NCBI RefSeq assembly: GCF_056712565.1
Contig: NZ_CM160072.1
DNA: 64,000 bases
Strand: one strand, 5' to 3'
Part shown: in pieces, positions 1,068 through 40,964 of the stretch
How positions within the stretch are numbered: position 1 is the first letter of the stretch
Layout of the letters: the number at the start of each line of letters is the position of its first letter
Program-made: the position numbers and the translations under genes
The notes under the pieces: model-generated
The model's input: only the letters and a program-made list of their open reading frames with translations
Databases searched by the model: none
Told to the model about the DNA's origin: nothing

Positions 1068-2801
1068 TTAAAGCGAGCGGATCCCGTAGGACTCAATGTG
1101 GTCAGACAGCGTGTCTTCTTTCTCGTACAACATGGCTCTGCCAACCGCCATAATCAGCGCAACTGCACCATCGATTTTGTTTTCCGCCTGCTCTTTGACG
1201 GGTTTCACCACATCATCGTTACCCGGAATGGTTTTGCCGACCACGTTGCCGATACACCAGGTCATGATGGGATTGCCATCATGATGAAAGCGCCCCGATT
1301 CAATTGCCGCTTCCAGCTCTTTCATCGGGTCGGACATGTTGGTGTAGTTCTGAATGATAGTGATGGGGTTCAGGTCTTCATCAGCAAGGTCATGTGACAA
1401 CCCGGTCGCCCCGAAGGGGTCGATGGGTGACTCACTGACCGGGCTGATTTTGTTCGCCGCTTTGGCCTCCTCGAGGATGTAGCGATAATCCACCTCCGCA
1501 CCATCGGTAACGGTCAGAACGCCCATTTCCACCCATTTCTGAAAGCGTTCGGCTGTCCGTCGATCTTCATTTTTCTCGACGCTGTACACCGTGTCATACG
1601 GTACCCAGAAACGCGGGGCCACACTGTAGTAATGCGTTTTACCGTCAATCTCGCGGGTATAAAGTCGCGCCATGCTGTTCATATCCAGCTTACGCGCCAG
1701 GTCAAAGGCCAGAATGCACGGCTGCCCCTCGAACTGCTCAAGGGTCAGTGATTTATCCTCGCAGCTCTGCCAGCTCACCAGGTTGAAATACGCCGAACGC
1801 GCCGACACCCAGATATTGAGGTGTTTTGTTTTAAAGACGTTTGCCAGACGGGCGTTATTTTTCGCACGCTGCTGCTGACTTAACAAAAATTCGCGATAAA
1901 CCGACACGCCAATATTTGGATTGGCTTTTTCCAGCACCTGCGGGTCGGTCCAGTCGTCACCTTCATCAACGGTATAGATGATCCCGAACAGTTCATCGTT
2001 AGGCACCGAGCCATTGAGCATCTCGATGACTTCCCGCCGCTTGTCGTAGCACGGCCCCTCAATGTTGTACCCGGCGGTGGTGATAGCCCACATCAGTGGC
2101 TGACGTCGCGCCCCCATCCCGGTAAGCATCGTGGTGTAAAGCGCATCGGTGGCGTGCTCGTGATATTCATCCACCACCGCACAGTGGGGTGATGAACCAT
2201 CACCGGGGTTACCGATCAGCGGTTCAAACCGCGCGCCATCCTCCGGACGGTTCATGTTTGAGGCGTTAACCTCAATCCCGAACGCTTCCGTCAGCATGGG
2301 TGTGCGTTTACACATCAGTCGAGCCGGGCGAAAGACTTCCCACGCCTGTTTCTCTGTCGTGGCACCGGAATACACTTCCGCGCCAAACTCGTTATCACAG
2401 GCAAAACAATACAGGGCAACACCGGCAGAGATTGCCGATTTGCCGTTCTTACGGGGGATTTCGGTATACACCTCCCGGAAGCGGCGCAGCCGGGAGCCTT
2501 TATTGACCCAGCCAAACGCGCAGCAGATCACAAAGAGCTGCCACGGCTCCAGCGTGATGGGCATCCTCTTAAATGCCCACTCACCCTTGGTGTGCGGCAA
2601 CAGCTGAATAAATTTGGCGGCCCGTTCAGCCAGGTCCTTGTCGAAGCGGTAACGAAACGACTTACTTTTTTCCGCCATCAGGTCATCAAGATGGCGCTGG
2701 CAGGCCTGAATCACAAACTGGCAGGCCACAATCTTTCCGCGCACGACATCCCGGGCATACTGATTGGCAGCATTTACGTTGGGGTAAGATTTCCGGCTCA
2801 T
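1068..2801 (-). CDS. Phage terminase large subunit
   Basis: 577-aa ORF with the characteristic size and ATPase/nuclease organisation of lambdoid terminase large subunits; preceded by small subunit and HNH endonuclease. Confidence 0.85.
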
Positions 2802-3301
2802 GATTCGATGATTTTCAGAAACGGGTTAGTGGCTTTCTTCTGCCCCGCCAGGCCAATCAGACGCTGACGGCTGCTGGGGTCGAGTCCGAGCATTGCCCCC
2901 GTGCTGCTCATCTCGGACTCCTGTTCTTTTTTGGCTGTCAGCTCCGGATTTTTGACCCTGCCGCCCATTGCGCCGGTGATGGTATTGCCCTGTATGGCAA
3001 TATTTTTCACAGCACGTAGCCAGAACTCATAGGCCACGCACCACCGCTCAAGCACCGCGAGGTCAGTCACGCACAGCAGGCCCTGACCGCAGAGTTCTTT
3101 GGTTGTCAGTTGCCACATGATCGTGGCGAGAGGGAGATCTTCTTCAGCGAACCACTCCGGTGGCTCAACACCTTTGATGGGCGTAAAAACAGGTTCATCT
3201 TTGTTCAGGGCTCGCTTGCCGGGGTTTCCGGCCAGCGCCTTGCGCGCCGTTGGCTTGGGGCGACGCCCGGAACGCCCCGCCGTTCCAGCCATATGCGGCA
3301 C
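2798..3301 (-). CDS. Phage terminase small subunit (P27-like)
   Basis: 167-aa basic protein directly upstream of and overlapping the large subunit by 4 bp. Confidence 0.7.
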
Positions 3302-3417
3302 TCCTGGTTAAATTTCATTTTTCGCGGGTATAAAAAAACGATGGGGCGGGCAGTCCGGAAGACGTCAGGTCACAGGGATTTGACCCGCCCCTCCCCTCAG
3401 AAAGTTGAGAATTATTA

Positions 3418-3768
3418 TCACTTCAGTCGTTCACGGGCCGTCTTCGCCTTATGACACGGCCAGCACAGGCTCTGCAGATTGCAGTCTGCATCAGTGCCGC
3501 CATGCGCTTTAGGGATGATGTGGTCAACGGTTTTCGCCTCACGCACCACACCGACATGCAGGCACAACTGACACAGGCCTTTGTCACGCTTCAGCACGCG
3601 CGCGCGGATAACATCCCACTTCGAACCGTAGCCGCGCTGGTGACGGGATTGTCCTGGCTTGTATTGTTTCCAGCCTTCGCTTTTGTGGCTTTCACAATAG
3701 CCTGACGGATCAGTGGTGGTTTGGCGGCAGCCGCGAACGCGGCAGGCTTTTGGGGTTCGTGGGGGCAT
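3418..3768 (-). CDS. HNH endonuclease (terminase-associated)
   Basis: 116 aa with cysteine-rich zinc-finger pairs (CRVRGCR, CQLCLH, CWPCH) and DHIIPKAHGG HNH motif; canonical position upstream of terminase genes. Confidence 0.85.
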   Translation of the reverse strand: MPPRTPKACRVRGCRQTTTDPSGYCESHKSEGWKQYKPGQSRHQRGYGSKWDVIRARVLKRDKGLCQLCLHVGVVREAKTVDHIIPKAHGGTDADCNLQSLCWPCHKAKTARERLK

Positions 3769-3870
3769 TTAAAGTGGGATCTAACTCTAATAATTTAAAA
3801 AATTTAATTGGGTCTTGATATTAATCACATAGACTCAATGCTCTTTAGTTCTTACATAGGTGGTTGTATT

Positions 3871-4311
3871 ATGAGTATCCCCAGTTTAGATGTTCATAAA
3901 GTTGTTAAGTGCGCAGAGCATAAAAAGGCTTTAGATGCAATATCTCTCAAACTTAAGAATAACATTATTGACTCAAGCTCTGAATACGATTTTCTTGGCG
4001 ACACAATAATTTTCAATAAAGATAAAAAAAATAGGTTAACCCTCAAACTTTCAACATATGAACTAGAACTTATTTTCAAAGAAACACTGCTAGTCATTGA
4101 TGAAGCTCCTGTATTGAAGTTTGCTGCCATTGACCCAACCGATGAAAATAACAACGAGCTGATTGATTTATTTTTATCCAAAGGTGGATTTATTTATATT
4201 AGAGAATACAAATCCGAGCCACATTATGAGTATGGCGACACTTCTCTATTTTTACATATACTTGACGCTACTCTTAAAGAGCTTAAATCTGCAAACAAAA
4301 TATCCTATTAA
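3871..4311 (+). CDS. Hypothetical protein, AT-rich moron
   Basis: ORF 3808..4311; likely start ATG 3871 (MSIPSLDV...) preceded by AGGTGG. Very low GC versus flanking phage genes, opposite strand to the structural/lysis genes, no recognisable motif. Confidence 0.45.
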   Translation: MSIPSLDVHKVVKCAEHKKALDAISLKLKNNIIDSSSEYDFLGDTIIFNKDKKNRLTLKLSTYELELIFKETLLVIDEAPVLKFAAIDPTDENNNELIDLFLSKGGFIYIREYKSEPHYEYGDTSLFLHILDATLKELKSANKISY

Positions 4312-4417
4312 ATAAATTTTTGCTAACATAGCCCCGCGCCATGACAAGATTTTCTGTTCTAGATGCAAGGGCTATGTGTGAATATCTATAAACAAAAACC
4401 CCATCCGGTGATTTTTG

Positions 4418-4669
4418 TCATTTTTTAGCCATCTCAATTGCGGCATCAAAAAGTCGTTCAAGAATAAAATCAGGGTACTGTAATTTTTCTTGCTCGATAT
4501 GAAGCTCATAAATTTTCCCTTCCCACTCCCATTTAAAATTAAATCCAGAAGCAGAAGGTGCGAAATGTGTTTTAGCTTTAGGGTTAGCGTAACCAGCAAC
4601 AGTCAACACATCAAACTTAAAATCTTGAGGTTTAATACGCATAATCATATCCTTTGCCAAGTTCATCAT
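4418..4669 (-). CDS. Hypothetical small protein (83 aa), AT-rich moron
   Basis: Intact ORF in the same low-GC island, convergent with 3871..4311; no recognisable domain. Confidence 0.35.
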   Translation of the reverse strand: MMNLAKDMIMRIKPQDFKFDVLTVAGYANPKAKTHFAPSASGFNFKWEWEGKIYELHIEQEKLQYPDFILERLFDAAIEMAKK

Positions 4670-4739
4670 TATTCTTCGCGATTATAAAACAATGAATAAA
4701 ATCATTAAAGCATAGACGTTAAATATCCTCAAAATGTGA

Positions 4740-5177
4740 TTAGTTGGGACATTGCGTCCTGATATACTCCTGCAAGTAATTGACCTGTGAGGTTATCTTG
4801 TCGATTCCACTTCGGAGACGGTAATAATGGAGTTCAGCATCTGCTGTAAGTCTAGGGCTTTCTCCATCGCCCATGCCGCTGGCTCCGGTCGTTGACTTTG
4901 TACAGGTGGCGGCGACTTGCAGGCGCTTATGCCCAGCAGAAACATCAGCACGAAGACTTTCGATAGTCGCATTAGCATCAGCAAGCTCCTTTGTATATCT
5001 GGCATCGAGTTCAGCTACATTACGTTGACGCTTCTGCATATCAGCGATGATGGATGTGGCTTTATCGCGCTGTACTTTGTAGACGATGGCGTCATCACGG
5101 TAATTATCAACAGCCCATGACAAGCAGACGATGATGCAGATAACCAGAGCGGATATAATCACCGTTACTCTGCTCAT
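4740..5177 (-). CDS. Rz-like i-spanin
   Basis: 145 aa with N-terminal TM anchor then coiled-coil-like periplasmic region; overlaps and follows the lysozyme gene; contains an embedded Rz1 frame. Confidence 0.75.
4793..4972 (-). CDS. Rz1-like o-spanin lipoprotein, embedded in Rz in another frame
   Basis: Internal start [18 protein letters not shown] gives a signal peptide with lipobox (ISAC) followed by a proline-rich segment ([14 protein letters not shown]), as in lambda Rz1. Confidence 0.6.
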
Positions 5178-5650
5178 ACCTGAATCTCTTTGACCGTTCC
5201 GCCGGCTTCTTTGAATTTTGCAATCAGGCTGTCAGCCTTATGCTCAAACTGACCATAACCAGCTCCCGGCAGTGAAGCCCAGATATTGCTGCAACGGTCG
5301 ATAGCCTGACGAATATCACCGCGATCAATCATCGGTAAAGCACCACGCTCTTTAATCTGCTGCAGTGCAACAGCATCCTGGCTTTTTGGAGAGAAGTCTT
5401 TCAGTCCAAGCTGTTTACGGTATGCATCCCACCAGCGGGAAAGAAGCTGGTAGCGCCCGGCAGCCGTTGATTTGAGTTTTGGGTTTAGCGTGACAAGTCT
5501 GCGAGGGTGATCGGAGTAATCAGTGAATATTTCTCCGCCCACAATGACGTCATAACCATGATTACGTGTCGGTTGTAGCCCATTATCCGTTCCTTCTGAC
5601 CAGGCCACCATATCGAGGAAAGCTTTACGCTGAGGATTAAGATTTTGCAT
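5174..5650 (-). CDS. Phage endolysin (lysozyme, T4/P21 R-like)
   Basis: 158 aa; N-terminus [24 protein letters not shown]...YDVIVGG is typical of lambdoid R lysozymes; sits between holin and spanin genes. Confidence 0.9.
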
Positions 5651-5942
5651 TTTTCACCCCTGTCAGTCGTTCCCAGAAGTACGTCAGTGCAACCGAACCC
5701 ATCGCACCACTAATCCCCGCAGTTGCGAGAATCATGTAAATACTGAATCCACTTTCGATACTGATTAGGCCACCAATAACACCGGTGAATCCTGATACAA
5801 CTATCTGAGCGAGGGCATTTATCCAGCTCCACGTTGCTTTACTCTGCTTCACATCAATCAGGTAACGGACAAGCCCCCCCCAACCTGCGATGATCAGCAA
5901 AACAAGCCAGAACGCTCCGGCAAGATTCTCTTTTTCGTGCAT
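5637..5942 (-). CDS. Holin (alternative upstream start at 6041)
   Basis: Small multi-TM protein overlapping the lysozyme start; internal start MHEKENLAGAFWLVLLIIAGWGG... gives ~101 aa with about three TM helices. Confidence 0.55.
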   Translation of the reverse strand: MHEKENLAGAFWLVLLIIAGWGGLVRYLIDVKQSKATWSWINALAQIVVSGFTGVIGGLISIESGFSIYMILATAGISGAMGSVALTYFWERLTGVKNAKS

Positions 5943-6051
5943 ATGAATAGCCGCAGTTTCGCCTCCGACAGAAAATCGGAGCGTGAAATGATATGTTGAT
6001 TTATTATTAATTCGAAAATTACATTCTAATTCATCAGGCATTGATGATTTT

Positions 6052-6090
6052 ATAATAATAAAGGCCGTTCGTTACGGCCTTTATTATTGA
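6052..6090 (-). terminator. Hairpin terminator between the late-region moron and the holin
   Basis: Perfect stem AAAGGCCGT / ACGGCCTTT (6060..6082) with 5-nt loop, flanked by A/T runs. Confidence 0.5.
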
Positions 6091-6093
6091 TAT

Positions 6094-6429
6094 TTATTTT
6101 ACATCCCAAGGTAGTTCCTCAAGAGAGAAGACTAATTCATTATCAATAATTTCGTATTCTGCATAACCTTCAACCTCTCCTGAGAAGTTATTGTCAACGC
6201 ATCCTTCATAATAGCTATATGGTGCTATAAAGTGAAACCCATATTCATCTATCTCTGTGATTTCAAAATTGTAGTAATCGTAAGAATATCGAATATCATC
6301 ATCAGAAATAGAACTAAGTACATAGTTATTAAATTTATCGGAATGCTTAACGATAAGTTCTGACAACGCGTCAAGATTCTCTGGAGAGATATTTCCTAAC
6401 GGTAATCTGTACTCAACGGCATTAATCAT
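6094..6429 (-). CDS. Hypothetical acidic protein (111 aa), late-region moron
   Basis: Low-GC ORF rich in D/E/Y, bracketed by two terminator hairpins, between the Q antiterminator and the lysis cassette. Confidence 0.5.
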   Translation of the reverse strand: MINAVEYRLPLGNISPENLDALSELIVKHSDKFNNYVLSSISDDDIRYSYDYYNFEITEIDEYGFHFIAPYSYYEGCVDNNFSGEVEGYAEYEIIDNELVFSLEELPWDVK

Positions 6430-6614: not shown

Positions 6615-7367
6615 TTATCTCGTCACCTTTCTCAATTGTGTTTCAGCATATGCTTCTTCCTGCCAGCACTTTGTTACTAGTTTATCAATTACGTCTGCAT
6701 ATCCTTTGTACCACTGATAATCAGTCAGGTCTGGAACCAGCTTCTGGACATGACGTCGTGCCAGTGTAGTCGGTAAACGGCTAAACCGGTTTCCATTGCA
6801 ACGCCCACAAGTCTTATAAACAGGCGTGCCATGAAGCCGGGTTCTTTTTTCATCCAGGACAATACCTTTACCCTTACACCCTCTGCACGCCGTGCTGACT
6901 TCTCCCTTGCCATGACAATGCTGACACAGTTCCTTCACCCACTCTTCTTTGATAACGGATTCCCCGCTTCTGGAATGTTTCACCACTTCGCGCAATACAT
7001 TATGAAATCCAGTACCAGTACAATGCTCACAGCGAGCCTTACTTGCCGCAGACCTGGAATAATCAGCAAAGGCAAAATTCACAAGGTAAGGGATGATCTG
7101 TAACCGGGTTTCTTCACTCAATTTGTTCAATGTCGGGTTATCCAGTGCCATCGCGTAATTGAGCAGGCCTTCAATCGCAAACTGAGGATCCTGAACACCA
7201 ACTTTTGCCAGGAATAAGGCAAACCCAAGCGGTGCTTTCGACTGCACCATCCCCTGCGCAGCCATTACATCCGTAATTGTTAAACCACCCGAGCCTGTCG
7301 CCGATGCGTCATCGCTCAATTTTGGAGATTTTGGGGAGTAATATTTCGGTAAGGCTTCAAGGTTCAT
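6615..7367 (-). CDS. Late-gene antitermination protein Q-like
   Basis: Multiple CxxC zinc-binding pairs (CEHCTGTG, CQHCHGKG, CRGCKGKG, CGRCNGN); located immediately upstream of tR' and the lysis cassette. Start may be 7409 or internal ATG 7367. Confidence 0.6.
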   Translation of the reverse strand: MNLEALPKYYSPKSPKLSDDASATGSGGLTITDVMAAQGMVQSKAPLGFALFLAKVGVQDPQFAIEGLLNYAMALDNPTLNKLSEETRLQIIPYLVNFAFADYSRSAASKARCEHCTGTGFHNVLREVVKHSRSGESVIKEEWVKELCQHCHGKGEVSTACRGCKGKGIVLDEKRTRLHGTPVYKTCGRCNGNRFSRLPTTLARRHVQKLVPDLTDYQWYKGYADVIDKLVTKCWQEEAYAETQLRKVTR

Positions 7368-7380
7368 GCTCGTTCTCCAC

Positions 7381-8376
7381 TTACACCAGTACGCCAATTG
7401 CCAGCGCACGATCGATAAAACGAAATATCAGCTCCAGCTGGGAGCCATACATCTCTTCAAATGCCACGGTATCCGCATGCAGCTCGTCGTGATGCTTTCT
7501 GCACAAAGGCAACACAAAAAGGTCATGCGCTTTTGTACCCATTCCACCCTGTCCGTGGCCTATCAGGTGGTGGGGATCATCAGCGGGCTTTCCACAACAT
7601 GCACACGACTGTGTCTTAACCCAGCGCGTGTACTTTTCATTAACCCAGCGGCGACGTTTTGGGCGTAACATAAAAGACTCCGGCGACTCCGGATCCACTT
7701 TCAGCGCCAGCACCTTTTTCGCCTTATCCTGGATGATGCTGGTGGCAGGAACCGAAGGCACAAGGTCACTTTCCCGGGTGACAGACGGCACAACAGGCTT
7801 CGGTAATCTCAGTGCCTTACGGGCTGCACTTTCCGGTAAGGCATCCGCCAGATCATTACGAACCAGCCACCAGCACAGTTCCGGCATTGTCACAACGTGA
7901 CTGTCATCAAAACCGAGATCCCGACGCACAACAGACAACACCCAGCGGGCACAGTTATCCGTTGCCATTGATTCCAGCCGTTCCGTGAACTGATCGCGAA
8001 GCAGGTTATCGCAGTGCCAGCACAGACGGATTGCGCCCGGCGCGTGTCGCATTGTGGTCATGTTCTCGCTGTGCCATCCGGAATGAGGCCACTGACAGCC
8101 CTTTTCACGAAGTAACCAGCTTTCAAGACATTCCACACCCCCCGCACGACGAATAACTGCCTCATTGCGGAACACGGCCCGAATGGCAGGATCATCCGCC
8201 AGCGGTTGTGATGCCGCCGGAACGGCACCACTGGCAAAAGATGAATAACGTTCCGGCTCAGGCTCCAGCAGGACACGCCCCTGCATAAACAGGGGCATCA
8301 GCTCTGAACCGGGCCTGAACAATACGATCCCCATACGCGGGGCAATTTCAGGGGTCAGTAGTGCTCTCACGGTCAC
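7381..8376 (-). CDS. DUF968-family protein (YdfU-like) with C-terminal HNH-like motif
   Basis: C-terminal CACCGKPADDPHHLIGHGQGGMGTKAHDLFVLPLCRKHHDELH resembles the zinc-finger/HNH signature of DUF968 proteins of E. coli lambdoid prophages. Confidence 0.6.
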   Translation of the reverse strand: MTVRALLTPEIAPRMGIVLFRPGSELMPLFMQGRVLLEPEPERYSSFASGAVPAASQPLADDPAIRAVFRNEAVIRRAGGVECLESWLLREKGCQWPHSGWHSENMTTMRHAPGAIRLCWHCDNLLRDQFTERLESMATDNCARWVLSVVRRDLGFDDSHVVTMPELCWWLVRNDLADALPESAARKALRLPKPVVPSVTRESDLVPSVPATSIIQDKAKKVLALKVDPESPESFMLRPKRRRWVNEKYTRWVKTQSCACCGKPADDPHHLIGHGQGGMGTKAHDLFVLPLCRKHHDELHADTVAFEEMYGSQLELIFRFIDRALAIGVLV

Positions 8377-16457: not shown

Positions 16458-16982
16458 ATGTCATTTATTAAAACTTTTTCCGGGAAGCATTTTTATTATG
16501 ACAGGATAAATAAAGACGACATCGTTATTAACGATATCGCGGTTTCTCTTTCAAATATCTGTCGCTTTGCAGGACATCTTTCACATTTCTACAGCGTCGC
16601 CCAACATGCGGTGCTTTGCAGCCAACTGGTACCGCAGGAATTTGCTTTTGAAGCGTTAATGCATGATGCAACAGAAGCGTATTGCCAGGACATCCCGGCG
16701 CCACTGAAACGCCTTCTTCCTGACTATAAACGGATGGAAGAAAAAATAGACGCCGTAATCCGTGAGAAATACGGGTTACCCCCGGTTATGAGTACGCCCG
16801 TGAAATATGCCGATCTCATCATGCTGGCAACCGAACGCCGCGATCTCGGGCTTGATGATGGCTCTTTCTGGCCCGTACTGGAAGGTATCCCGGCAACAGA
16901 GATGTTCAAAGTTATTCCACTGTCGCCAGGCCATACCTATGGGATGTTTATGGAACGCTTTAAAGAGTTAACTGAGTCGTAA
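16458..16982 (+). CDS. HD-domain 5'-deoxynucleotidase, YfdR-like
   Basis: HD motif (ALMHDATEAYCQDIP) and histidine-containing N-terminal region; start MSFIKTFSGKHFYYDR preceded by GGAG. Confidence 0.7.
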   Translation: MSFIKTFSGKHFYYDRINKDDIVINDIAVSLSNICRFAGHLSHFYSVAQHAVLCSQLVPQEFAFEALMHDATEAYCQDIPAPLKRLLPDYKRMEEKIDAVIREKYGLPPVMSTPVKYADLIMLATERRDLGLDDGSFWPVLEGIPATEMFKVIPLSPGHTYGMFMERFKELTES

Positions 16983-17090
16983 AAATCAGCACGTACGAAT
17001 TCAAACTCTGCCATAAAAGAACATATAAGTAATTTATTAACATATAGATATAGGTTATATTACAAATTGAAAAATTATTGGAGAGCAACA

Positions 17091-17957
17091 ATGAATCAAA
17101 ATCCATTCTCATTCTATGACTTTCTTGGATATTTAATACCAGGTGGTTTTTTTATCCTATTAATGTATTTCTGTGGTTTGACATTCGATCTAGATATTGT
17201 TATTGACTTAAGTGAATTGCTCAGAGGTCAAAGTCAAATCTTTGGCATTTTGAACTACGCTTCAATAGTTATTATATCTTATATAGCTGGACATTTTATT
17301 TCTATCACGTCAGCATTTTTTATCGAAAAATACATGAATAAAGAATTAGGATATCCTTCCAAATATCTATTTAAAAAATTGATAGATACCTCAGAAAGCA
17401 TTTGTAGCCCATCATGCGATGAGAGAAGCGCTGATAAAAAAACAAAAATAAAGAATCGCATAATCAAATGCGTATTATGTCCAATAATACTATGGGATTT
17501 TATAACACAAAAACTATGTTATTCTCAATCTCTACCATTTCATTTAGCTAATACAACATGGTTAATGATCAAAGAAGGTTATGAGAAAAAGTTCATAACA
17601 AATCGCCAATTATTACAAGATAAAAACGGACTTGATGATGATCTCTTCAGATTGGCATATCATTATGTTTATGAGTTTTCAAAACAACATCAAACAAAAA
17701 TTCAAAACTATGTTGCATTATATGGTTTTTGCAGAAACATATGTTTAATCTTTATAATTTCATTTTGGGTATCAGTTCCAACCTTTATTTATCGATTATG
17801 TACTCATAGTGATTATCTTTATAGTTTACTTTCAATAATGCTTAGCTTTTTCTTCGTCTATGTTTTCTATGTTGGTTTTGTTAAATTTTATAGAAGATAT
17901 ACTTTAGAAGTATTAATGGCATTTGCTGTACTTCAAAGTAACGACACTATTCGTTAA
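17091..17957 (+). CDS. Integral membrane protein, very low GC (candidate exclusion/abortive-infection moron)
   Basis: ~288 aa from ATG 17091 (RBS GGAGAG); two predicted TM helices at each end with a ~130-aa soluble central region; strongly AT-rich codon usage. Confidence 0.5.
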   Translation: MNQNPFSFYDFLGYLIPGGFFILLMYFCGLTFDLDIVIDLSELLRGQSQIFGILNYASIVIISYIAGHFISITSAFFIEKYMNKELGYPSKYLFKKLIDTSESICSPSCDERSADKKTKIKNRIIKCVLCPIILWDFITQKLCYSQSLPFHLANTTWLMIKEGYEKKFITNRQLLQDKNGLDDDLFRLAYHYVYEFSKQHQTKIQNYVALYGFCRNICLIFIISFWVSVPTFIYRLCTHSDYLYSLLSIMLSFFFVYVFYVGFVKFYRRYTLEVLMAFAVLQSNDTIR

Positions 17958-17998
17958 TAATGTTGCTCCCGTGTGCAGACGGGATAATGGAGAAACGT

Positions 17999-18205
17999 AT
18001 GCTGAACCTCGATTGTGTTCCTATCTCAACTTATTGCAAAGAAACTGGCGAAACTCCTGAAGCAATAAACAAACGTGTACAGCGCGGTGTTTGGCGTGAA
18101 GGTGTTCAGGTTTTAAAGGTTGAAGGCGTTAAGGAGAGGTGGATTGATCTTAGTGAGGTTGCAAAATGGGCCAGACAAAACTGCTCAAACTACCGCGCGG
18201 CGTAA
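17999..18205 (+). CDS. Excisionase-like protein
   Basis: Small basic protein directly upstream of and overlapping the integrase gene; GGAG RBS 8 nt before ATG 17999 (alternative start 17987). Confidence 0.55.
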   Translation: MLNLDCVPISTYCKETGETPEAINKRVQRGVWREGVQVLKVEGVKERWIDLSEVAKWARQNCSNYRAA

Positions 18206-19338
18206 CAATCAGGAAACACCACCAGGGAGAAACGATCAATATAACTTTCACCTACAAAGGAGTTAGATGTCGTGAGCCGCTTTCCAATCTGGAAGTAACA
18301 CCAAAGAACATTAAATACGCCGAGCGTACACTCGGCGAAATCCATAATAAGATCGAAAGGGGAACATTCATTTATGCAGAATATTTTCCCCGTTCTGCTC
18401 GTTTGAAAATTTTTGGTAATGCTGCTGCAAGCAAAACGGTAAAGATGTACCTGGACGAATATCTTGAAATCTGCGAAACAAGAAAACTTTCACCCTCTAC
18501 GATTGGTGGCTATAAAAAATGCCGTAGTGCGTTAGCCTCACTTCACATTTGCCCTGCAAGTGAATTAACACCAGCAACCCTGAAAGCGTGGATTCAAAGC
18601 CAGAAAACAACCTTAAAAACCATTCGCAACCAGTTATCTTTCCTACGGTCAGCACTTGATGAAGCCGTGACCGATGGGGTACTTCAAATTAACCCCGTAT
18701 CGTTAGTAACAGCTTCGCGCTACCAAAGTGATAAGTCAGAAGCAGAAAGCAGCTATGTGGTTGATCCGCTATCACCAGCAGAAGTTGATGCATTACTAGC
18801 AGCAGCCGGAAACAAACAATGGGAAAATCTGTTCCGGTTCGCCATACATACAGGCCTGCGTAGTTCTGAATTATGTGCCCTACGATGGCATGATATCGAC
18901 TTTGTTGGAAAAACAGCCCATGTTCAGAGCGCAAGTGTTGTCGGAGTTATCAAAGGAACAAAGACAAAAGCCGGTACCCGTAAAGTTGAACTGACTGAAG
19001 AAGCAATGTTGGCGTTGATAAACCAGAAGCCATTTACATTCATGAAGGATGCTACTGTCTTTGAAGATCCAAAGACCAATAAACCCTGGGCAAGTGCTGA
19101 TGCAATTAGGAAAAAAGCATGGGTGCCAACATTGCGAAAAGCAGGTATTCGTTACAGAAACCCATATCAAACCAGGCATACATTCGCCACCAGCCATATC
19201 AGCCGGGGAGCAAACCTGTTTTGGCTTGCGGCTCAAATGGGCCATAAAGGGCCTGAAATGTTATTCAGGCACTATGGACAATACTTGAAAGAGTATGATG
19301 GGAGGGCAAGTATCAAGGATAAAAAGGCTTTATTTTAA
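18166..19338 (+). CDS. Tyrosine integrase (phage integrase family)
   Basis: 390 aa with catalytic-domain signatures (LRSSELCALRWHDID; HTFATSHISRGANLFWLAAQMGHKGPEMLFRHYGQY), reading toward the att remnant. Confidence 0.9.
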   Translation: MGQTKLLKLPRGVTIRKHHQGETINITFTYKGVRCREPLSNLEVTPKNIKYAERTLGEIHNKIERGTFIYAEYFPRSARLKIFGNAAASKTVKMYLDEYLEICETRKLSPSTIGGYKKCRSALASLHICPASELTPATLKAWIQSQKTTLKTIRNQLSFLRSALDEAVTDGVLQINPVSLVTASRYQSDKSEAESSYVVDPLSPAEVDALLAAAGNKQWENLFRFAIHTGLRSSELCALRWHDIDFVGKTAHVQSASVVGVIKGTKTKAGTRKVELTEEAMLALINQKPFTFMKDATVFEDPKTNKPWASADAIRKKAWVPTLRKAGIRYRNPYQTRHTFATSHISRGANLFWLAAQMGHKGPEMLFRHYGQYLKEYDGRASIKDKKALF

Positions 19339-19947
19339 GTCATTATGCCAATCGTCTACTGTTTGAAACCAAATTTTTAACCTTTGCATAAAGGTACGAT
19401 CCTTTTTGGGAGGGTGGTACCTTTGAAAAGAAGTATGTAACGCTTCGATAACTCCCATACAAGCATCAATTACTTCTTGTGCTTTAACCGGGCGATCGGC
19501 ATCTGAAAGCTTGTGAGCGACCTCACAATCCAGAGTTGCTTTCTCTAGTACAGATGAGAACACCTCGTCAGGTATATACAGTCCTCTGCTTTCCAAAATG
19601 CAAATCAGTTTGGAAACTTGTTGAGCTTTAGCCAAGATAGTTAACAAGTATGAAACAGAAGCCTTTGTTCTATCCTTTTGCAACCTTAACAATCGATGCT
19701 TTGATGCTCTAATTTTAGGTTGAGTTGTCTGACTGAGCCAATAGTTAGAAGAAATATCAGAAATTTCAATAACTAACTTTGAAATAGCATCAATAATTGA
19801 TTTCGATTCAGAACGTGTCGCCAGTTTTACAGAATTATTGTACGCAACTCGCCATCCAATGAAAACTAAGCAGACGCTAACTACTGTGATACACCACGAA
19901 TACTGTCCTATTTGTGCTACTAATGACATTGGTTCCGTACTGATCAA
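19330..19947 (-). CDS. Membrane-anchored protein, third gene of the integrase-proximal cassette
   Basis: 205 aa; single N-terminal TM helix (YSWCITVVSVCLVFIGW) then a ~170-aa soluble domain with no recognisable motif; 3' end overlaps the integrase 3' end; 10-bp gap to the upstream gene. Confidence 0.5.
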   Translation of the reverse strand: MISTEPMSLVAQIGQYSWCITVVSVCLVFIGWRVAYNNSVKLATRSESKSIIDAISKLVIEISDISSNYWLSQTTQPKIRASKHRLLRLQKDRTKASVSYLLTILAKAQQVSKLICILESRGLYIPDEVFSSVLEKATLDCEVAHKLSDADRPVKAQEVIDACMGVIEALHTSFQRYHPPKKDRTFMQRLKIWFQTVDDWHNDLK

Positions 19948-19957
19948 CTATCGCCTC

Positions 19958-20284
19958 TTATACTCTTTCTGGTTGTGCTAAATCAATAAATTTATCAATC
20001 TGTTCTTTGTAGAACGGAACATCACTTTTTATAATCAAACGTGCTTTAACGTTGGCTTTAGGTATCCCTTCCTTACGGATGAGACCTCCAAACGCCTCTT
20101 CTAAGAAAGAGGAACCAACACCCAGTGCTATACCGCGAAAATCAACCACAATCTCCTGTTCAGTACCCTTCAGCGCAGGCACCAAAAACTCTCTACGAAA
20201 TCTTTCCGCACTGTGTGGGCTATCCGTTGTGTAACGTCCGAAAGGTGTTCTGGAGAACTCCTTCGCTATGACGATATTTCTCAT
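19958..20284 (-). CDS. Small STAS-like protein (DUF4325-like), second gene of cassette
   Basis: 108 aa; segment EIVVDFRGIALGVGSSFLEEAFGGL resembles the STAS-like DUF4325 proteins that I recall pairing with GHKL ATPases; 4-bp gap to the upstream ATPase gene. Confidence 0.45.
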   Translation of the reverse strand: MRNIVIAKEFSRTPFGRYTTDSPHSAERFRREFLVPALKGTEQEIVVDFRGIALGVGSSFLEEAFGGLIRKEGIPKANVKARLIIKSDVPFYKEQIDKFIDLAQPERV

Positions 20285-20288
20285 AAAA

Positions 20289-21200
20289 TCATCTCCTGGG
20301 AACCAGCGACCATTGTAGTAAAGTACCCGGTATGTACTCAGCTAGCTTCTCACATCGAGGACTACTGTCATTAGAATTATAGCTATAACGAGCCCTTCCT
20401 ATTAGTATCAGAAGTGTCTCATTATCCTCACAACCTGCCCCAATAGGTCTCTTGATATCTTCAGAGCCATTTCCCCGTCCGGAACCAACAAAGCGGGATT
20501 CCCCTACTAACATAGCTCTTTCCACAGAAGATACTTCGTTTTGAATGCTATGACCATCACCATTAGGCACGAAACTTCTATAAATCCCCAATCCAAGGTC
20601 ACAAACGATAAAAACGACTTTATTTTCATCACGATTGAACCAAGCGCACTGCCACCATCGTTTACCTTTGAGAAGCTGAATATCTGACTCGAACCCCTCA
20701 TCTTCATACGCATGATGAGAAACATTGAGCAAAGCTTCACTAATCGCTGTCAGCAGTAAGCCTAACTGTTCATTATTAAGCAGAGCACTTTTCTGCAGCA
20801 TGAGTACTGTTTCAACAATATGCTCGTAAGGTTCGACAGCTGACTGAAAGTATCGTTCCTCCCTCGTAAGTGCATTCAGTTTCTCTTCTGTGCCAGCAAG
20901 CAAAGCACGAGCAAGTCCAGTACCAACGATCCATCTATGCCCAGATGGGTTATCATCCTTTTTAGGCCATTTAAAACGTATAAAATTAGGGTCCCGGGTT
21001 AAAAATTGAGCTCTATTTACTATGGCAAAGAACAGTACCGATGCCGCAGCTGAGGCAAATTTTACCTTGGACAAATCAACTATAACTCGACCTTTATTTT
21101 TTACTCCAATCGATTCAATCGAGTTGATGAAGTTCAATGTCCCAGCCCTAGAATCATCTGAGTAAATGCAAAATTTGCTTGGGGGTACCAGTATGGTCAT
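20289..21200 (-). CDS. GHKL (Bergerat-fold, histidine-kinase-like) ATPase, first gene of cassette
   Basis: 303 aa; N-box-like EALLNVSHHAY, G1 box VCDLGLGI (DxGxG), G2-like GSGRGNG; ~130-aa N-terminal extension of unknown fold; AT-rich promoter-like region upstream (21201..21340). Confidence 0.6.
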   Translation of the reverse strand: MTILVPPSKFCIYSDDSRAGTLNFINSIESIGVKNKGRVIVDLSKVKFASAAASVLFFAIVNRAQFLTRDPNFIRFKWPKKDDNPSGHRWIVGTGLARALLAGTEEKLNALTREERYFQSAVEPYEHIVETVLMLQKSALLNNEQLGLLLTAISEALLNVSHHAYEDEGFESDIQLLKGKRWWQCAWFNRDENKVVFIVCDLGLGIYRSFVPNGDGHSIQNEVSSVERAMLVGESRFVGSGRGNGSEDIKRPIGAGCEDNETLLILIGRARYSYNSNDSSPRCEKLAEYIPGTLLQWSLVPRR

Positions 21201-21351
21201 AGCGATGTCATTCTTATACGATGGATTTATAGATTATCTACTATTCATAGTTGGTTATGAAGACTGGGATATAACAGTAAAAGATACGTGTAAGATCCGC
21301 AAGATAGTTAATGTCGAAAAAATCATTAATTACATCAAGTTAGTGATATTT

Positions 21352-21376
21352 GGACTCGGGTTCAACTCCCGCCAGC
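21352..21376 (+). other. Partial copy of the ssrA (tmRNA) 3' end: prophage att remnant
   Basis: GGACTCGGGTTCAACTCCCGCCAGC matches the E. coli tmRNA 3' end (GGACGCGGGTTCAACTCCCGCCAGC, recalled from memory) with one mismatch; upstream sequence does not match the tmRNA body, so this is a fragment. Confidence 0.6.
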
Positions 21377-21506
21377 CAATCATGATTGGACGGTGTAAGG
21401 ACTACACCAACAAAAACAGGAAGTTATAAGTCTCAGCAGGACACCGACCAGACGGTGAGGAGACAAAAAAGGATACGCAACGGAGTCGCGACTCCCTATG
21501 ACATTA

Positions 21507-21531
21507 AAGCCCGCTGATGCGGGCTTTTTTA
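21507..21531 (+). terminator. Rho-independent terminator
   Basis: Stem GCCCGC-TGAT-GCGGGC followed by TTTTTT, about 130 nt beyond the ssrA-like fragment. Confidence 0.55.
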
Positions 21532-21899
21532 TTGGTCCTGACCCGCCCTGAATAGAATTCATCCAATTACAGTCCAGACATATACAGTATCCCTCAGCTC
21601 AGTATCAGCTTCTCGACAAATGGTCACTGTTATTTACCCGTTGCCAGAAAGAGAATAATTTGCCCCCATAGCCAGCCTTCCCGGAATCTGTATATTCATT
21701 AATATTGTTATCGATTCCATCAAGTAACATAGGTTGGATGCGATTGATCTTACTCACATTAGTCGACACGGAACTCAGTAAGTTGAACTCTGAAAAAGCA
21801 GTTTAAATAGCATTTAAACAAATGCCACCAGTTCGAAAAAGAGTATAAGCACACTTAATATATTGTTTTAATTATTCATTTCCTTTCAACCCAATTCTT

Positions 21900-23038
<1,139 letters not shown>

Positions 23039-31166: not shown

Positions 31167-31571
31167 TTAGATCAGGAAATCGTCGAGAGATTTACCTTCT
31201 GCCAGCGCCTGAGCGATTGGCTTCGGTGTACGGCCCTGACCGGTCCAGGTTTTAGTTTCACCGTTAACATCGATGAATTTATATTTCGCCGGACGCGGCT
31301 GGCGTTTTTTACCAGCGCGTGGTGCCGCAGCAGAGCTATCACCCAATAACTCTTCCGGGTTAATTCCGTCAGCTTTCATCAGCTCCAGCCAGGTGCTAAT
31401 TTTTTCCTGGCGCTCTGCCAGTTCACGCTGCTGTTGTTCTTCTTCTTCACGTCTTTCTTTAGTGACAACCCTGAATTTTTCGAGCATTTCTTCAAGAACG
31501 TCAATGGAGAATTCGCGAGCCATCGCACGGAGGGTGCGAATGTTATTTAAACTTTGTAACATTACGGACAT
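31167..31571 (-). CDS. stpA: H-NS paralogue StpA
   Basis: 134 aa H-NS-like nucleoid protein. Confidence 0.95.
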
Positions 31572-32237
31572 AATAAAGAAAACCTTTTAACGCCAAAACA
31601 AAAAAGTATTTCGTCGCGTAGTGTAAGCGATCACTTATTATATTTCCACAAAATTTAATCTATTTACAGTCCTGCACGAGATTATTTCAGCTGTTATTTT
31701 CTGAAACTCTCAGAATAATTTCAAGATTATATATTAGCCATTTTGATGAGTAATTTAGGTTATTGGTGAACAGAGCGGCGCTCTCTGCTCGCTAATTCCG
31801 CAAGCCCGACAAAACCAAAGTGAATAAAAATGCAACTCAACAGAATAAAAGAAAACATCTATCACTGGTGCTTTCTGCTGTCAATGTACATTATCTGGCA
31901 TAAAAAATGCTGAAAATGACCCGATCACTACATACACCGAATTCTCTACGCTTATAGCGTTACCTCCCCCCAAACCTTCATGAGTGAAAATAAAGGTAAA
32001 CACATATCCAATTGATTTAATTAAAAACAAATCATATCGGCATGTAAAAATCCACAATGTACAAAAAACGCGCCGTTACGGAATATTTTATCTACAAAAA
32101 CAGATTAAATAAAAATTTTTCACTAATTGATTAGTCATAGCCAGCGATATACGCTATGCGAAAATGCAGATGGCAATGAGATCCACTGCTTTCATCTCCA
32201 TTCACATCCCATTACGCTTTTATTAAGGAGCATTAGC

Positions 32238-32687
32238 ATGTTCTCACCGCAGTCACGCTTGCGTCATGCAGTTGCAGATACGTTCGCGATGGTTGTTTAC
32301 TGTTCTGTCGTGAACATGTGTATTGAAGTTTTCCTCTCCGGAATGAGTTTCGAACAGTCTTTTTATTCCAGATTGGTAGCGATTCCGGTGAACATCTTAA
32401 TTGCATGGCCATACGGTATGTACCGCGATCTGTTTATGCGCGCAGCACGCAAAGTTAGCCCGTCGGGCTGGATAAAAAATCTGGCGGATATCATGGCTTA
32501 TGTGACGTTCCAGTCACCGGTGTATGTGGCGATCTTGTTAGTGGTGGGCGCAGACTGGCATCAGATTATGGCGGCGGTCAGTTCAAACATCGTTGTTTCG
32601 ATGTTGATGGGGGCGGTTTATGGCTACTTCCTCGATTATTGCCGCCGACTGTTTAAAGTCAGCCGTTACCAGCAGGTAAAAGCCTGA
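32238..32687 (+). CDS. alaE: L-alanine exporter AlaE
   Basis: 149 aa from [16 protein letters not shown] with AAGGAG RBS; the longer ORF-track start is unlikely. Confidence 0.9.
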
Positions 32688-38437: not shown

Positions 38438-39406
<969 letters not shown>

Positions 39407-39761
39407 GGGGGTTATTTTCAAAAATATCACTACCCGCTGCAGGGAAATAATTCCCGCCAAATAGCTTTATATCACGTAAATAATTTGTGGTGATCTACAC
39501 TGATACTCTGTTGCATTATTCGCCTGAAACCACAATATTCAGGCGTTTTTTTGCTATCTTTGACAAAAAATATCAACTTTTCTCGATTTGCTCTCAGCCC
39601 TTATATCATGGGAAATTCCGGCGATTTGCTCACATCAATATTCATGCCACATTTGCCCTCAGGGGTTGCCTCAGATTCTCAGTATGTTAGGGTAGAAAAA
39701 AGTGACTATTTCCATTGGGTAATGTATCGACATAAACAAATAACAGGAATCTTTCTATTGC

Positions 39762-40964
39762 ATGGCAATTAAATTAGAAATTAAAAATCTTTATAAAATA
39801 TTTGGTGAGCATCCACAGCGAGCTTTCAAATATATCGAACAAGGACTTTCAAAAGAACAAATTCTGGAAAAAACTGGGCTATCGCTTGGCGTAAAAGACG
39901 CCAGTCTGGCCATTGAAGAAGGCGAGATATTTGTCATCATGGGATTATCCGGTTCGGGTAAATCCACAATGGTACGCCTTCTCAATCGCCTGATTGAACC
40001 CACCCGCGGGCAAGTGCTGATTGATGGTGTGGATATTGCCAAAATATCCGACGCCGAACTCCGTGAGGTGCGCAGAAAAAAGATTGCGATGGTCTTCCAG
40101 TCCTTTGCCTTAATGCCGCATATGACCGTGCTGGACAATACTGCGTTCGGTATGGAACTGGCCGGAATTAATGCCGAAGAACGCCGGGAAAAGGCCCTTG
40201 ATGCACTGCGTCAGGTCGGGCTGGAAAATTATGCCCACAGCTACCCGGATGAACTCTCTGGCGGGATGCGTCAACGAGTGGGATTAGCCCGCGCGTTAGC
40301 GATTAATCCGGATATATTATTAATGGACGAAGCCTTCTCGGCGCTCGATCCATTAATTCGCACCGAGATGCAGGATGAGCTGGTAAAATTACAGGCGAAA
40401 CATCAGCGCACCATTGTCTTTATTTCCCACGATCTCGATGAAGCTATGCGTATTGGTGACCGAATTGCCATTATGCAAAATGGTGAAGTGGTGCAGGTTG
40501 GTACACCGGATGAAATTCTTAATAATCCGGCGAATGATTATGTCCGAACCTTCTTCCGTGGCGTCGATATTAGCCAGGTGTTCAGTGCGAAAGATATTGC
40601 CCGTCGTACACCGAACGGCTTAATTCGTAAAACCCCCGGCTTCGGCCCGCGTTCGGCACTGAAATTATTGCAGGATGAAGATCGCGAATATGGCTACGTC
40701 ATCGAACGCGGTAATAAGTTTGTCGGCGCTGTGTCTATCGATTCGCTTAAAGCCGCGTTAACGCAGCAGCAAGGTCTTGATGCGGCGCTGATTGATGCGC
40801 CGTTAGCGGTCGATGCACAAACGCCTCTTAGCGAATTGCTCTCTCATGTCGGACAGGCACCCTGTGCGGTGCCCGTGGTCGACGAGGACCAACAGTATGT
40901 CGGCATCATTTCGAAAGGAATGCTGCTGCGCGCTTTAGATCGTGAGGGGGTAAATAATGGCTGA
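39762..40964 (+). CDS. proV: Glycine betaine/proline ABC transporter ATPase
   Basis: 400 aa; Walker [11 protein letters not shown]-terminal CBS domains. Confidence 0.95.

Follow-up and report, generated by a model that had tools for sequence, protein, structure and literature searches.

The question raised by positions 3769–4739 of a 64,000-nucleotide (nt) stretch of Escherichia coli DNA (contig NZ_CM160072.1 of NCBI RefSeq assembly GCF_056712565.1; hereafter, the window) is whether two small genes lying side by side in a lambdoid prophage came in, and work, as one unit. The genes occupy an island of low G+C content (GC) between the lysis and packaging genes and are named here ORF146 and ORF74, after the lengths in amino acids (aa) encoded by the two open reading frames (ORFs). 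The original prediction, drawn from the sequence of the window, described about 1 kb of AT-rich DNA at this place, with a plus-strand ORF of about 146 aa and a convergent minus-strand ORF of 83 aa. The AT-rich interval was confirmed, with a GC of 0.330 against a window mean of 0.502 (standard deviation 0.060 in 500-nt windows; z = −2.9) and with borders that fill the exact gap between an HNH endonuclease gene and a spanin gene. The larger ORF was found at the expected length, and the smaller frame also exists (4418–4669, minus strand, start at 4669), although the gene within it is most likely shorter (74 aa). The island had further been read as a two-gene insertion and an accessory module, such as a toxin/antitoxin-like pair. 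Accessory cargo agreed with the iss or unrelated genes that sister prophages carry at the same site, but the two-gene unit had to be abandoned, given that the genes are distributed independently over more than 30 other loci, are convergent and match no toxin or antitoxin model. The island is probably a junction at which a lysis-end module and a packaging module abut, and its two genes are probably two independent single-gene morons.

Separate distribution of the two genes

The genomic contexts of relatives were taken from NCBI, ENA, JGI, Logan and IMG/VR, and homologues of the window proteins were located by tblastn in all loci. Relatives of ORF146 were found in about 17 loci (L002, L008, L012–L016 and L018–L026), where they always adjoined an HNH gene followed by the terminase genes terS and terL, and always lay on the strand opposite to the late operon; an ORF74 relative stood beside them in none of these loci. 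Relatives of ORF74 were likewise found in about 17 loci (L005–L007, L009–L011 and L027–L034), 3′ of the lysis cassette and on its strand. They followed the spanin gene directly in most cases, with an extra ORF in between in L007, L032 and L034, and in L031 lysis genes were not seen nearby. None of these loci contained an ORF146 relative, and the phages concerned have at least three unrelated terminase types. The genes 3′ of ORF74 varied by locus and comprised antisense small ORFs, co-oriented small ORFs and, once, a homologue of the phi80 defence protein Tai, which is discussed below. Both families occur together in this prophage lineage alone, and it appears that ORF146 was carried along by HNH-type packaging modules and ORF74 by the 3′ ends of lysis modules.

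Genes of benefit to the lysogen are known to settle between the lysis and packaging genes of lambdoid prophages, examples being bor/iss (serum resistance) and Tai (anti-phage defence), and lambda has bor at this place. Other cargo lies between the lysis genes and the HNH gene in four sister prophages that share the HNH–terS–terL module (L035–L038, from E. coli DFL.5, S56, O157:H7 BB24-1 and MS 57-2). Two of them carry iss, the bor homologue, which is antisense like ORF146; one carries two hypothetical genes, both antisense (111 and 189 aa), and one a DUF6979 gene together with a small hypothetical gene (67 aa). These findings support the original prediction in its remark that the island occupies the bor position. 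Among 5,426 complete E. coli genomes, the full island was present in only 101–105, as against 1,083 with an HNH gene related to that of the window at 80% nucleotide identity or more. Low GC was a property of every relative, with values of 0.30–0.35 for ORF146 and 0.36–0.43 for ORF74 as against 0.46–0.55 for the flanks. The cargo is thus present between conserved genes in some relatives, replaced in others and distinct in composition, as is typical of morons. It resembles lambdoid and HK97-like morons, in the sense of the Hendrix/Juhala concept, in its patchy presence, its late-gene flanks, its odd composition and the hairpins or terminators that follow the genes, and it differs from the bor/iss morons in that two different cassettes abut here and the promoters are candidates. 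In itself, the locus is ordinary cargo at a hot spot, in keeping with the current understanding of such sites. What it adds is two very small, uncharacterised protein families restricted to this site, each with its flanking module identified.

Several neighbours of these relatives were recorded as well. In L002 and L008, an unrelated 76-aa ORF of normal GC sits where ORF74 is located in the window (4579–4809, minus strand, in L002); it comes after the spanin genes, is convergent with the ORF146 relative and has no PADLOC match. When the antisense neighbours of ORF74 relatives were compared with defence genes, one weak Cas6-like match and one Tai homologue were obtained. The former is a 206-aa antisense ORF after the ORF74 relative of L011 (2211–2831, minus strand; PADLOC Cas6, E = 8e-4) and is unrelated to TaiEcA. 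The latter lies in L034 (IMGVR_UViG_2648501357_000002), which contains the most distant ORF74 relative (5001–5219, 33% identity); the antisense TaiEcA homologue (5619–6137; 30% identity over 182 aa, E = 1e-17) is found about 400 nt downstream of it, and an AtiEcA-like gene was not detected in this locus.

The genes, their products and their signals

The features of the island and its surroundings are collected in Table 1.

Table 1. Positions of the island, its genes and candidate signals, and the adjoining prophage genes in the window
Feature	Position	Strand	Remarks
Large terminase subunit gene (terL)	1068–2801	−	
P27-family small terminase subunit gene (terS)	2798–3301	−	
HNH endonuclease gene	3418–3768	−	Packaging-module flank; phrog_144, E = 3e-44
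Low-GC island	3769–4739		GC 0.33; fills the exact gap between HNH gene and spanin gene; cargo at this site varies in this prophage type
Candidate weak sigma-70 promoter of ORF146 (TTGATA-N16-AATGCT)	3815–3842	+	Pattern match
Shine-Dalgarno-like AGGTGG	3858–3863	+	7 nt 5′ of the ORF146 ATG; read from the sequence
ORF146 (WP_000026993.1)	3871–4311	+	146 aa from ATG; antisense to the late operon
A8 homopolymer in ORF146	4024–4031	+	Codons about 52–54
Long GC-rich hairpin (ACAUAGCCC...GGGCUAUGU)	4326–4378		In the convergent intergenic region
A-tract/short stem/U-tract hairpin	4392–4418		Abuts the ORF74 stop codon
ORF74 (WP_001220676.1)	4418–4642	−	74 aa; late-operon orientation; starts about 100 nt past the Rz stop
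TATAAT box, candidate own promoter of ORF74	4681–4686	−	About 39 nt 5′ of the start; pattern match
Rz-like i-spanin gene	4740–5177	−	Flank; phrog_13, E = 3e-67
Embedded Rz1-like lipoprotein ORF	4793–5005		Inside the spanin gene
Lysozyme gene	5174–5650	−	
Holin gene		−	Late-operon order: Q, then holin, then lysozyme
Q-type antiterminator gene	6615–7409	−	

ORF146 encodes an acidic, predicted soluble protein of 16.7 kDa. Its homologues begin at the same methionine, and a 167-aa extension from a TTG start was rejected, having no homologue support. The relatives share 30–94% identity in full-length, almost gap-free alignments, and the pairwise ratios of nonsynonymous to synonymous substitution rates (dN/dS) were 0.33–0.43 for pairs with unsaturated dS, which indicates purifying selection. 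The family is enterobacterial and tiny: six representatives, three of which are fragments, turned up when 1.84 billion representative proteins were searched exhaustively with a hidden Markov model (HMM).

The homologues of ORF74 are all 72–74 aa long and start at the methionine that is internal to the 83-aa frame, 7 nt upstream of which an invariant AAAGGA (4650–4654) was found. Based on these lengths, this motif and the RefSeq/PGAP call of 74 aa, the shorter gene is the most likely one. Its product (8.7 kDa) is also predicted to be soluble. The relatives are 33–78% identical, and dN/dS values of 0.03–0.18 revealed strong purifying constraint. Fifteen clusters, several of them truncated or frameshifted, were retrieved from 5.8 billion by a word-indexed profile search. 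Since both families have conserved homologues and low dN/dS, ORF146 and ORF74 are considered genuine genes and not chance ORFs.

Neither product resembled a protein of known function, as the original prediction had stated when it noted the lack of a signal peptide or known motif. No signal peptide or transmembrane segment was predicted in either, the maximal 19-aa Kyte-Doolittle averages being 1.12 for ORF146 and 0.44 for ORF74. Pfam, PHROGs, NCBIfam and PADLOC gave no match to ORF74; Pfam, PHROGs and NCBIfam gave none to ORF146, for which PADLOC produced a single alignment, of 31 residues and without significance (E = 0.016). When diverged family members were included with both proteins in profile searches of the same four collections, nothing significant was obtained, and profile searches against the PDB sequences gave chance-level matches (E at least 0.05). 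A tblastn search of 50,697 phage genomes, phi80 included, found no match to either protein at E up to 1, and no paper mentioning either was retrieved in a literature search by the two RefSeq protein accessions. HMM and structure-based searches, which the original prediction had proposed as a check, were thus carried out and gave no known function.

In the AlphaFold2 model of ORF146, which is a confident one (predicted local distance difference test (pLDDT) 84.8, predicted template-modelling score 0.76), an N-terminal helix of 30 residues is followed by an antiparallel sheet of seven strands and by a C-terminal helix. A Foldseek search of AFDB50 retrieved about 28 similar structures of about 145 aa at E = 0.001 or better, from Enterobacterales and Pseudomonas, all of which are uncharacterised. 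The model is similar to the Frataxin/CyaY-like and type III secretion chaperone-like alpha-beta sandwiches in fold only; membership of Frataxin/CyaY by sequence profile together with a strong fold match was not found. The invariant residues of ORF146 belong mainly to the hydrophobic core and a catalytic-looking motif was not seen, so that a binding role looks likelier than an enzymatic one. For ORF74, AlphaFold2 gave a model of lower pLDDT (67.7), in which a helix, a three-stranded sheet and a second helix are predicted.

The convergent spacer between the two genes (106 nt) folds into two hairpins. RNA folding of positions 4305–4425 yielded −32.5 kcal/mol for the minus strand (z = −4.0), a stability reached by none of 200 shuffled sequences, and z = −2.3 for the plus strand. 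The hairpin next to the ORF74 stop codon looks like a weak bidirectional terminator common to both convergent genes, and it was not flagged in a strict terminator scan. At its position, the ORF74 relatives have a canonical GCCGCC...GGCGG-T6 terminator. Among the ORF146 relatives, a canonical terminator was located past the stop codon in L012/L013 and L016, and a hairpin without a T-run in L002 and L008. As for the −10 boxes, the diverged ORF146 relatives L012 and L024 have a perfect TATAAT aligned to the candidate AATGCT, and the TATAAT box of ORF74 is kept in three of four aligned relatives. From this positional conservation, own promoters are plausible for both genes.

The state of ORF146 differs between carriers. 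The A8 run is an A7 run in 44 of 101 carrier genomes, UTI89 among them (L004, 1750–1756), whereby ORF146 is frameshifted at about codon 53 and left without annotation by RefSeq. Database variants at the same run are truncated or lack one codon (P0024 and P0002), and truncated variants are common in databases. Either one clonal event or slippage that switches the gene on and off could lie behind the A7/A8 difference. Because of the frameshift in these carriers, ORF146 is dispensable in at least one successful sublineage, whereas ORF74 is retained in an intact, highly conserved form where ORF146 has lost its frame or is missing. In the avian pathogenic E. coli strain APEC E18006 (L003, NZ_CP126942.1, 4097–4894), an IS1 element (IS1B) cuts ORF146 at about codon 29. 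Beyond this element ORF74, the lysis genes and Q are gone, and early-region and integrase genes abut instead; the L003 prophage is rearranged or deleted. The A8 and A7 alleles constitute a natural on/off pair for ORF146 in two well-studied strains, ATCC 11775 and UTI89.

Possible roles and competing explanations

The original prediction held that both ORFs are transcribed independently of the late operon, which is wrong as stated for the small one. With a late operon on the minus strand, the Q-antiterminated transcript would include ORF74, and only ORF146 is antisense to that operon. ORF146 would accordingly require a promoter of its own and, by analogy with bor/iss and phi80 taiEcA, which occupy the same site, is likely to be produced in the lysogen. 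In the lytic cycle, RNA polymerase modified by Q would pass the shared hairpins, cross ORF146 in antisense and damp its expression. Transcription of ORF74 would accompany that of the late genes, and its own TATAAT box may contribute; its product would most likely be a small late-phase accessory or anti-host protein. ORF146, to judge from its model a soluble alpha/beta protein of non-enzymatic appearance, would most likely act by binding another protein. Our best guess for its role, made tentatively and with the balance still against it, is superinfection exclusion or anti-phage defence of the lysogen, exerted by such binding.

The closest precedent for the layout is the Tai/Ati locus of phage phi80, which is strikingly similar by analogy of arrangement. 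In phi80, the defence gene taiEcA (orf63, 204 aa) is part of a moron locus that precedes the packaging module, and its transcription runs against that of the Q-dependent late operon; it is expressed in the lysogen and its expression is lowered by that of Q (He et al., 2024; PMC11364771). The neighbouring atiEcA (orf64, 76 aa) is transcribed together with the late genes and its product neutralises TaiEcA, an arrangement termed a noncontiguous operon by the authors, and a recognisable Ati partner was present in only 5 of 57 Tai systems (PMC11364771). In both phages, the Q-controlled late operon is broken by an antisense gene immediately before the packaging module, a neighbour gene of about 75 aa has the late orientation, and the whole is a moron locus of a lambdoid phage. 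Taken literally, this likeness would make ORF146 a lysogen-expressed anti-phage protein and ORF74 a late antidote that spares the prophage's own lytic cycle, and the pair a noncontiguous operon of the Tai/Ati kind. Besides the layout, the ORF74 relative close to a Tai homologue in L034 favours such an operon, and the weak co-occurrence of the two genes is not fatal to it because most Tai systems have no recognisable Ati (PMC11364771). However, BLASTP of ORF146 against TaiEcA gave E = 3.4 and ORF74 did not align with AtiEcA at all; ORF146 is shorter than TaiEcA by the lengths given above, and the genes are convergent here but divergent in phi80. ORF146 and ORF74 do not co-travel, each family tracking a different flank in its own set of about 17 loci, and ORF74 stays intact where ORF146 is frameshifted or absent. 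A Tai/Ati-like operon is therefore considered improbable. Owing to the missing similarity, the convergent order and the separate travel, the phi80 likeness is taken to indicate how the locus may work and not to which family its genes belong.

A type II toxin–antitoxin-like pair would fit two small adjoining genes of foreign composition in a prophage. Such a pair is essentially excluded, given that the genes are convergent and not co-transcribed, do not co-occur beyond this lineage (ORF74 standing alone in many phages) and have no counterpart among the toxin, antitoxin and defence models of Pfam, NCBIfam and PADLOC, and that loss of the ORF146 frame is tolerated in the 44 carriers with the A7 allele while ORF74 is retained. 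The next best guess for ORF146, which we regard as unlikely, is a lysogenic-conversion or host-fitness factor that serves the bacterium in its niche and is not directed against phages. ORF146 shares both site and antisense orientation with iss of the sister prophages, and most of the listed carriers are E. coli of the extra-intestinal pathogenic and avian pathogenic types. On the other hand, ORF146 has no sequence similarity to Bor/Iss (no Lambda_Bor match in Pfam or NCBIfam); without a lipoprotein signal or lipobox, a hydrophobic N-terminus or a membrane segment, it cannot act at the surface as they do, and it is frameshifted in the sublineage of UTI89, a successful pathogen. The proposal that the island is inert, decaying cargo, with ORF146 becoming a pseudogene and neither gene mattering to phage or host here, accounts for the A8-to-A7 frameshift, the IS1 insertion and the common truncated variants. 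We think it improbable as well, because both families are under purifying selection across genera, ORF74 especially so, and frames, ribosome-binding sites and terminators are kept in diverged relatives.

Two independent single-gene morons remain the reading that we prefer, and three points weigh against it or against the activity of its antisense gene. The lack of co-occurrence elsewhere does not strictly rule out a functional link in this one phage. ORF146 is frameshifted in a large part of its carriers and may be decaying. In a strict consensus scan, promoter-like and terminator-like sites were no commoner than in shuffled sequences and no promoter was found 5′ of ORF146; as regards signals of their own, the two morons have hairpins after both genes and candidate −10 boxes that are kept in position. 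It is also conceivable, but unlikely, that ORF146 represents a new single-protein anti-phage or superinfection-exclusion factor, an uncharacterised alpha-beta sandwich silenced by antisense late transcription, with ORF74 possibly its late antidote. If ORF74 were indeed an antidote, the locus would be a second, unrelated example of a Tai/Ati-style noncontiguous operon of defence and counter-defence. A small defence or anti-defence gene, the other suggestion of the original prediction, may thus apply here, and both genes are clean but modest candidates for a defence/anti-defence screen.

The island in the prophage and other low-GC segments of the window

The window contains a lambdoid prophage of E. 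coli of the HK97-like type, whose late operon (Q, holin, lysozyme, Rz, HNH, terS and terL) lies on the minus strand. The surrounding phage genes have GC values of about 0.50–0.58, as against 0.33 for the island. Over 1.1 kb around the island, the type strain ATCC 11775 of E. coli and many other isolates matched the window with 100% identity, and further carriers included UTI89, S88 and avian pathogenic strains. An Rfam scan of positions 3300–5300 gave no match. The repeat search found only short repeats at chance level, and neither a duplicated insertion site nor inverted ends at the borders of the island.

The island is one of eight stretches with a GC below 0.40 within the 64 kb. A second low-GC cassette (about 0.31–0.35) occupies the gap between the Q antiterminator and holin genes, in the segment 5751–6800; in Stx phages, stx is located in this gap. 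The cassette contains a gene in late-operon orientation (6094–6429, minus strand) for an acidic 111-aa protein, whose sole match was phrog_13663 (unknown function, E = 9e-54), with none in PADLOC or NCBIfam. Further segments below about 0.40 were located at 16701–18300, 19251–22200, 31351–32450 and 39301–40000. These four segments may be additional foreign cargo, in or outside the prophage.

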